Positions 52,710 through 53,970 of a stretch of DNA of 64,000 nt are shown in pieces; the first letter of the stretch is position 1, and the number at the start of each line of letters is the position of its first letter. A program made the translations under genes and the position numbers. Below the pieces are notes generated by a model. It was given only the letters and a program-made list of their open reading frames with translations. It was not told where the DNA came from and searched no databases. The stretch covers positions 32,984,001 through 33,048,000 of the forward strand of contig NC_079171.1 of assembly GCF_947568905.1 (NCBI RefSeq). Reading direction: 5' to 3'. Origin of the DNA: Ostrea edulis (taxonomy: Eukaryota).

Positions 52710-53970
52710 TTATTCATTTATTTTATAATGACCACAGGAATAACCCTCAATTCCACATGGTTCTAGCCAATATCGTTTGTCGTCAAATGATGAGAGATAT
52801 ACCTTATGGATGGATTTTAGATACAAGTTATGGTTGTCACTTCGTATAGAGCGCATATTATGTCTTTCATATTCACCGTTAAAAAGACAAACATGTACAT
52901 GATTTCTTTGCTAACCACGGTTTTTGAAACGCCTTTAGCTTTCTTAAATTCTTTTCCATCGTTGACGACAAAGGAATACATTTTTGGTCGTAGACCCACA
53001 AATCCTCTCACAACAGTTCCTATAAAAGAATCTCACATTTTTTGGAAAAAAGAATTCAACGTTCTGGGAAAATAATGAATATTTTGGAGATTTTCATTGG
53101 AATAGAGGTTATTAATAATATGTTAAACTTACCAGCTGTTTCATCTTTCATTTTGCCAACCACCTTTTTTTTTGGTCACTAAATAAGAAGTGCTCTCTTG
53201 GGTAGTTTGAGGTATCGAACAGATCCATATGTTGATGTATCTCATTATACAGATCTTGGACCTCACATCTATGGTGCAAACATACGAAAAAAGAAATGTA
53301 GTGATGCGCTATGTTTTAAGTGTATGAAGGTATTATAATATGATTTAATTTACCTGTAAAACAGAGAATCGGTGTCAGTCATCAATAATTTTGCCTTTTC
53401 CTTGTATTGTTTCTTGATGCAATCATAATGGAATTGGTACATGAATAACTTAGAAATGTCCAATATTGCCATGCCAGTATATATGGGTTTGTTAAGTAAT
53501 AGTTTTATTTTTTTGTTTTTCACTCCAACTAAATGGGGATTAAATATGGTAAACGTTTCGAAACTAGGTTTACTGACTAGCTTCTGTAAACGTTTCTTCG
53601 TATGCACTAAATTGAAATTCAGTCTATTCCGAATGTTCTCCATGGTTTTTCTGAAAGAACAAAAATGTCTTCATAAAATATAGTAATATATAGCATGTAC
53701 ATCTCAGAGCTCTGATTGTGTGAACTTACCCAAATACTATATTGTTGTATGCTTTGTAAAGAGACACTTCGAAATCGTTTTGAGCTTGCTGCCTCATTTT
53801 GGTATTGTACTCAATGTATGGTTTCAACCACGGAGTCTGTTTGAAACTAAGAACACGATGTATTTTTCTTAATACAAGTCCGTGTTGAAGATAGAATTGC
53901 AGATTTCTGTAGTGAACAACATATTTCTCCTTCGTTCTTAACGTGGGAACAAGTTTCTTTGAAATTTCCC
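52710..53970 (-). pseudogene. Protein-primed DNA polymerase B, 3' part, with three GT-AG introns and two frameshifts
   Basis: [58 protein letters not shown] and FDDKRY. Introns at 53651-53729, 53269-53353 and 53020-53132. Confidence 0.88.

Follow-up and report, generated by a model that had tools for sequence, protein, structure and literature searches.

Introduction

Mavericks or adintoviruses are characterised, in the sections of PMC8502044 available to us, by terminal inverted repeats, a 6-bp target duplication, an rve integrase, a double-jelly-roll capsid homologue, a penton-like gene, an adenain-like protease, an A32-like ATPase and, in the Beta class, a divergent PolB without PF03175. 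The Ostrea edulis element described here shares these features, its polymerase being a putative PolB of this kind. The core genes of Mavericks are usually described as intronless, whereas up to three conserved GT-AG introns lie in the polymerase gene of the present element. In the parts of the respective texts on which we draw, intact vertebrate Polintons are described as having no introns, in stated agreement with Kapitonov and Jurka 2006 (PMC8097293), nematode elements as having intronless core genes and introns in cargo genes only (10.1101/2022.07.12.499685), and endogenous viruses as entities that 'do not contain introns', which serves to justify the use of a prokaryotic gene caller (PMC10120064). 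Introns of the kind reported here are not mentioned in the accessible portions of PMC8502044, 10.1101/2023.08.22.554363, PMC12220804, PMC6431247, PMC10294476, PMC11071296, PMC11296320, 10.64898/2026.10.13.758929 and 10.64898/2026.07.28.741278.

The nearest case of intron-type sequences inside Maverick-like elements comes from dinoflagellates, whose elements carry introners (Gozashti and Corbett-Detig; PMC11957031, PMC12166617). As far as the excerpts of these papers go, the dinoflagellate introners are repeated, transposon-derived and mostly acquired after integration, whereas the introns of the oyster element are non-repetitive, conserved in position, carried through transposition and followed by exons under selection. 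In the main texts of the openly available literature, no report of conserved spliceosomal introns in an animal Maverick polymerase was found.

The adenovirus E2B region is a further point of comparison, since the DNA polymerase expressed from it is nuclear and protein-primed and its Pol II transcripts are spliced. In adenovirus, however, splicing serves mainly to attach short upstream exons or leaders to a long coding body, whereas in the oyster element short introns interrupt the catalytic core and the thumb region of the polymerase itself.

Results

Anatomy of the element and damage to the window copy

The window, i.e. the whole stretch of 64,000 nucleotides that was analysed (contig NC_079171.1, positions 32,984,001 to 33,048,000), contains a deleted, twice frame-broken Maverick remnant, and ~900 nt separate it from a second, unrelated element (56559 and 57471). 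In window coordinates, the features are:

50039..52709, no strand assigned: element sequence downstream of the polymerase, 91-94% shared with sister copies
52710..53019, minus strand: polymerase exon 4, ending with the stop codon and broken near 52886-52894 by a second frame break that is private to this copy
53132-53020, minus strand: intron 3, 113 nt, GTAAGT..TTATAG, phase 1
53133..53268, minus strand: exon 3, with a private frame break near 53165-53173
53353-53269, minus strand: intron 2, 85 nt, GTAAAT..CCATAG, phase 2
53354..53650, minus strand: exon 2, KTMEN ... DTDS
53729-53651, minus strand: intron 1, 79 nt, GTAAGT..TTTCAG, phase 2, in-frame stop directly after the donor
53730..53997, minus strand: 3' remnant of polymerase exon 1, ending at IVFG, the rest of the ~1000-codon exon being deleted
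53990..53997, no strand assigned: junction of a ~6.3 kb internal deletion that removed capsid, protease, ATPase and most of the polymerase
53998..54699, minus strand: remnant of a core-protein-like gene and a penton-like gene
54696..55814, minus strand: rve integrase with chromodomain, in pieces here
55923..56559, minus strand: left terminal inverted repeat, element end AGTAGT at 56559
57471..64000, plus strand: unrelated Alpha-type Maverick, its polymerase just past the window end (locus L040)

Sister copies show the complete gene order, which runs from one terminal repeat through a PC4-like ORF, the rve integrase with chromodomain, penton-like gene, core gene, major capsid, adenain-like protease, A32-like ATPase, two small ORFs and the polymerase, with C2H2 fingers at its N-terminus, to the other terminal repeat. 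The full-length copies measure 16.2, 16.3, 16.3 and 18.3 kb, in keeping with the ~15-20 kb of Mavericks/Polintons, and identity among copies is 96-99%. All four full-length copies examined have terminal repeats of ~0.6-1 kb with AGTAGT ends and are flanked by 6-bp target duplications, each of them different, which indicates that the element spread together with its introns. The integrase, of the retroviral-like rve type of Mavericks/Polintons, combines PF00665 with a chromodomain, and the virion module of the sister copies includes a Peptidase_C5 match above cut-off, a weak Pox_A32 match (E 0.0025) and a capsid 35-43% identical to that of the neighbouring Alpha element, itself a weak DJR match. 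Neither PF03175 nor any other Pfam polymerase family matched the polymerase, whose homologues are named DNA-directed DNA polymerase and carry PF03175 in few cases, and a PDB search with the homologue P0157 returned zinc fingers only among the 60 matches listed. The polymerase probably belongs to the Beta class, as this is defined in the available sections of PMC8502044, and the absence of PF03175 fits this assignment. No close relative was found in IMG/VR, where the best match reached 56% identity.

In the window copy, the deletion has brought the core-protein gene into fusion with the 3' remnant of polymerase exon 1, the virion module is lost except for the penton-like gene, and only the left terminal repeat is kept, the right one being absent from the window. 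Contigs of sequencing runs X1 and X4 depart from the window at 53989, as do undeleted copies. The preliminary description had correctly spotted a frame break at the A run 53165-53173, but had taken the copy for nearly intact and missed the second break at ~52886-52894; sister copies are in frame at both sites. It had further proposed additional introns upstream, on account of an acceptor-like TACAG at 53971. This candidate had to be rejected: the letters lie beside the private deletion and are identical to in-frame coding sequence in sister copy L031. No intron-sized gap was found in the first ~1000 polymerase codons of the sister copies that span the deletion; exon 1 of copy L032 is one open frame of 1002 codons, and three other copies show isolated frame breaks only. 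An intron in the penton-like gene, suspected from frame changes in sister copies, was rejected as well, the penton frame being open in the window and the breaks lying in an A-run. In subfamily A, the group of closest copies, the genes for integrase, capsid, protease and ATPase showed no intron.

Downstream of the polymerase and convergent with it, a 128-aa ORF of two similar halves (52158-52544, plus strand) is kept in the sister copies and had no convincing Pfam match. Elsewhere in the window, 47481-49958 holds a YqaJ-like exonuclease ORF and pieces of a DDE_Tnp_4 transposase that belong to a separate DNA transposon, which we take to be ISL2EU-like; 7230-11896 is occupied by an LTR retrotransposon whose 996-aa pol frame is flanked by direct repeats of 178 nt that are 99% identical; and 30033-30947 is a Transposase_21 fragment, presumably CACTA-like.

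Placement and character of the introns

The 3' end of the polymerase gene is split on the minus strand by three GT-AG inserts of 79, 85 and 113 nt. When compared with a profile built from 46 database homologues that lack interruptions, the inserts lie in codons 95, 194 and 240 of the profile with zero residues extra or missing, which bears out the earlier observation that their removal restores the conserved motifs. DTDS in exon 2 is presumably catalytic motif C in the nomenclature of family-B polymerases. The introns had also been called AT-rich, and they are indeed richer in A+T than the exons, but only modestly so (70-75% versus 63-68%). With the splice-signal bonus of the alignment switched off, a GT..AG pair no more than 8 nt away from the alignment gap was located for 14 of the 16 inserts found at the three sites in 8 loci, as against 0.042 for random segments and none of five spurious gaps in the 3' tail. 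The two inserts without GT..AG are the one at site 3 of L006, which has no GT, and that of L009, in which the donor region is deleted. The last 20 positions of 11 introns contain 10-16 pyrimidines, and the exon junction contexts are G/G or AG/R-like, the slash marking the junction. GT..AG ends, a pyrimidine-rich 3' end and exact codon register are the features of U2-type introns. Lengths differ even among close copies: intron 2 measures 130-175 nt in the sister copies, via a 45-nt tandem unit, and 85 nt in the window copy, and intron 3 measures 124 nt in the sisters versus 113 nt in the window copy.

Distribution within the genome

A search of the genome with exon 2 gave at least 23 matches at no fewer than 21 distinct loci. 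Thirteen of the 21 loci have at least one insert at the three sites, five span the region without any insert and three are partial. All six subfamily A copies contain all three introns. Beyond subfamily A, seven loci of four divergent groups carry inserts of unrelated sequence at the same codons. All three sites are occupied in L006, whose exon 2 is 80% identical, and sites 1 and 3 in L007 and L008; L009, L010, L019 and L022 have an insert at site 3 only, which is the most widely shared position. L009 and L010 have lost the site-3 donor and retain just the 3' part of the intron. Spurious long gaps that the spliced aligner placed outside the homologous region (L012, L017, L020, L141, L142 and L158) were left out. 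The third intron of L006 lacks the GT of the donor in contigs of runs X1 and X4 as well, and the RefSeq model P0005, which matches exon 2 of L006, joins the exons.

Across subfamilies, the lengths of introns at the same site are 79/105/99/89 nt for site 1, 85-175/83 nt for site 2 and 113-124/113/85/120/204 nt for site 3. Alignment of same-site introns between subfamilies gave z values of at most 2.2, like those of shuffled controls, and only the close pair L007/L008 has alignable introns (z 4.6 and 10.0). Across the 895 Mb genome, matches to each window intron were confined to the six copies of subfamily A, the number of matches being a lower bound, so that these introns are not introners; many similar copies at unrelated sites, the mark of introners, were not observed, and the three window introns are dissimilar to each other. 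The introns are also present in contigs of two other DNA runs. The possibility raised in the preliminary description, that the interruptions are private insertions mimicking splice sites, is contradicted by their occurrence in six of six copies, in divergent subfamilies and in these two runs. Joints that skip an intron were not found in the contigs of five runs of unrecorded kind, of which X1, X2 and X4 resemble whole-genome DNA and X5 and X6 cover short patches only.

Contig C8 is rich in Mavericks and holds 7 of the 23 Beta matches and 24 of the 35 Alpha matches. By eye, a stretch of the 204-nt third intron of L022 resembles the host sequence that flanks two subfamily A copies, on C1 and C8, and into which they have integrated; it is probably a host repeat and favoured target.

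Selection on the downstream exons

Directly after the donor of intron 1, an in-frame stop ahead of the DTDS motif is found in subfamilies A, B and C. Without splicing of intron 1, exons 2-4 would be junk; instead, these exons are under purifying selection. Between L007 and L008, dN/dS is 0.04 in exon 2, 0.19 in exon 3 and 0.12 in exon 4, and between subfamilies A and B, pN is 0.11-0.20 with pS at 0.71-0.89, which is saturated. L007 and L008 share a frame break in an A-run of exon 2, and some of the differences between them may therefore have accumulated after function was lost; the database relatives P0169 and P0173 are unbroken at this position. Within subfamily A, pN about equals pS for L002/L003 and for L004/L011, and as the differences between these copies carry no signal of selection, present activity of subfamily A copies is only putative.

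The neighbouring Alpha-type element

The preliminary description had suggested examining the polymerase of a second copy beyond the window for the same introns. The polymerase at L040 does contain an intron, but the element is not of the same family: it matches PF03175, is of the Alpha type and has an intron site of its own. Its 993-codon frame is followed by one phase-1 GT..AG intron of 127 nt (L040:3372-3498, minus strand) inside the EFYG/CxFHGC motif, at a site that differs from those of the Beta introns. An Alpha polymerase search gave at least 35 matches, and among the 20 loci fetched the intron was recognised automatically in 19 and by eye in L175. Thirteen Alpha loci, the window neighbour among them, do not differ over the query, and 11 of the other 12 are 98.9-99.7% identical to the window neighbour across 3.2 kb, a near-identity that points to a very young family that spread with its intron. 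Within the Alpha intron (L159-L178), a motif composed of a C-run, a CTAAC-like stretch, a G-run and a GGC-repeat is kept across subfamilies that are 71-90% alike and could possibly form a hairpin, the rest of the intron being variable. The Alpha element also contains an ORF with a CARD domain fused to PC4 (59090-60160, plus strand) and a second PC4-like ORF (58119-58565).

Homologues in other hosts

Among the 120 short database ORF matches listed out of 193 found, at least 12 begin at site 1 and cease to align at site 2, the residues upstream being different. At least six further short ORFs among the matches listed run off at site 3, a position near which background broken ORFs also end. P0003, P0004 and P0286 read through in-frame inserts of ~28-31 codons at sites 1, 2 and 3, respectively. 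The Mytilus edulis ORF P0053 stops just past site 3, where model P0052 continues; the ENA contig ORFs P0154 and P0174 are broken at sites 1 and 3, where the Pinctada model P0352 joins; and the Crassostrea virginica model P0368 joins site 3, where ORF P0278 begins. Of 372 proteins compared, all those with clade-specific unbroken junctions are eukaryotic gene models from NCBI. These amino-acid breaks and annotators' predictions suggest introns at the same sites in other oysters, pearl oyster and mussel. The earlier expectation that ORF-based surveys miss the gene is borne out, as prokaryote-type ORF callers fragment it at the intron sites. In metagenomic and IMG/VR sequences, no insert was found at the three sites in 83 distinct loci spanning all three of them, which remained of 91 (the best 80 of 538 metagenome matches plus IMG/VR) after removal of 2 duplicates and 6 sequences that were too short.

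P0012, P0015, P0017, P0075, P0065 and P0072 hint at protein level at further intron positions near sites 1 and 3; P0012 and P0015 are one base off site 1, and P0075 is two codons upstream.

Intron history

A quick tree was calculated from 78 rows, with 15 loci omitted, and a careful, unrooted tree from 55 rows after a further 23 short, redundant or long-branch rows had been dropped. In the careful tree, sites 1 and 2 each require a single change (among 42 and 46 labelled rows, respectively) and site 3 requires three (among 44). The rows with sites 1 and 2 are nested in a 100/100 clade that includes oyster and pearl-oyster sequences, and site 3 is found there as well as in another clade, to which Mytilus and Pinctada belong. 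As introns are absent from the wider family, gain is the simpler reading of this unrooted tree, and P0004, which lacks site 3 inside the first clade, implies a loss. The tree thus suggests a stepwise arrival of the introns in bivalve-associated elements, in which site 3 is the most widespread, followed by site 1 and then by site 2, and in which an intron was lost at least once. Whereas the quick tree unites the two site-3 clades with an SH-aLRT of 94, the careful tree does not resolve them as sisters, which leaves the order of gain uncertain.

Repeated independent gains at favoured proto-splice sites could also account for shared positions, above all for site 3, which lies in two well-supported clades of uncertain relationship; the G/G or AG/R-like junctions and the nearby differing positions suggested at protein level by P0012, P0015 and P0075 would fit such a history. 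We consider it somewhat unlikely, since sites 1 and 2 each map to one clade with one change and the quick tree joins the two site-3 clades, and in any case it bears on the history of the introns and not on their reality.

Discussion

The window most likely contains a broken copy of a ~16.2 kb Maverick whose three polymerase introns were inherited from an active element and would have been spliced by the host from a nuclear Pol II transcript, and we hold this reading with high confidence. The proposal of spliceosomal introns inside a Polinton polymerase is thereby upheld for introns of spliceosomal type that are shared and old, as they occupy fixed codons across divergent subfamilies. From the selection on the downstream exons, we infer that host Pol II transcribes the polymerase gene in the nucleus and that the major spliceosome removes the introns. 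As the stop of intron 1 lies ahead of DTDS, a working polymerase would need splicing and hence transcription in the host nucleus. The introns appear to have been gained and tolerated in bivalve-associated lineages and are probably near-neutral passengers rather than a regulatory device. That conserved introns occur in a core replication gene of bivalve Mavericks, and in both polymerase classes of one genome, is well supported by the sequence comparisons.

A regulatory role is nevertheless conceivable, in which the introns act as a switch: retention would give a ~1000-residue, polymerase-dead product made up of the exonuclease part and an N-terminal part that is a putative terminal protein, or would lead to nonsense decay, and full splicing would give the polymerase. 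Both unrelated polymerase types have an exon 1 of ~1000 codons (1002 and 993), and the first five codons of the intron after it include a stop; in subfamily A the genes for integrase, capsid, protease and ATPase appear free of introns, and the inner motif of the Alpha intron is kept across subfamilies 71-90% alike. However, the stop is not conserved, since the P0003 family has an open intron 1, part of the P0004 family an open intron 2 and P0286 an open intron 3, which lends the switch weak support; in families D and E and in the Mytilus clade, site 3 is the only one occupied, and it lies downstream of DTDS; and the interiors of the Beta introns are not conserved. We therefore regard such a switch as improbable. 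Similarly, it is quite unlikely that both bivalve Maverick polymerase classes became splicing-dependent independently, with the stop-bearing intron after the ~1000-codon first exon as a spliceosome-gated replication switch by which one gene would give either a polymerase-dead primer/exonuclease protein or the complete polymerase, in a still-mobile, capsid-encoding element invisible to ORF-based virus surveys. Extremely improbable, and largely refuted, is an origin of the inserts as post-integration debris or introner-like insertions in dead copies, never needed for function: the window copy is dead by sequence and introners enter dinoflagellate Maverick-like elements mostly after integration (PMC11957031, in the sections available), but the introns are not alike, match only the six subfamily A copies in searches that give lower bounds, and hold positions fixed across subfamilies with saturated synonymous sites and with selected exons downstream.

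The presence of conserved introns in the polymerase gene has several consequences for the study of these elements. Surveys that assume intronless genes fragment or miss whole bivalve Maverick lineages. A spliced junction, if found, would bear on where and how the elements are expressed, as it would demonstrate transcription by Pol II in the nucleus and speak against a life style that is cytoplasmic and dependent on giant viruses. Reads across the junctions would at the same time be a marker of activity specific to RNA, which genomic DNA cannot mimic. Finally, the nested gains and losses of these introns may offer a compact system for the study of intron gain in animals, where such gain is rare.
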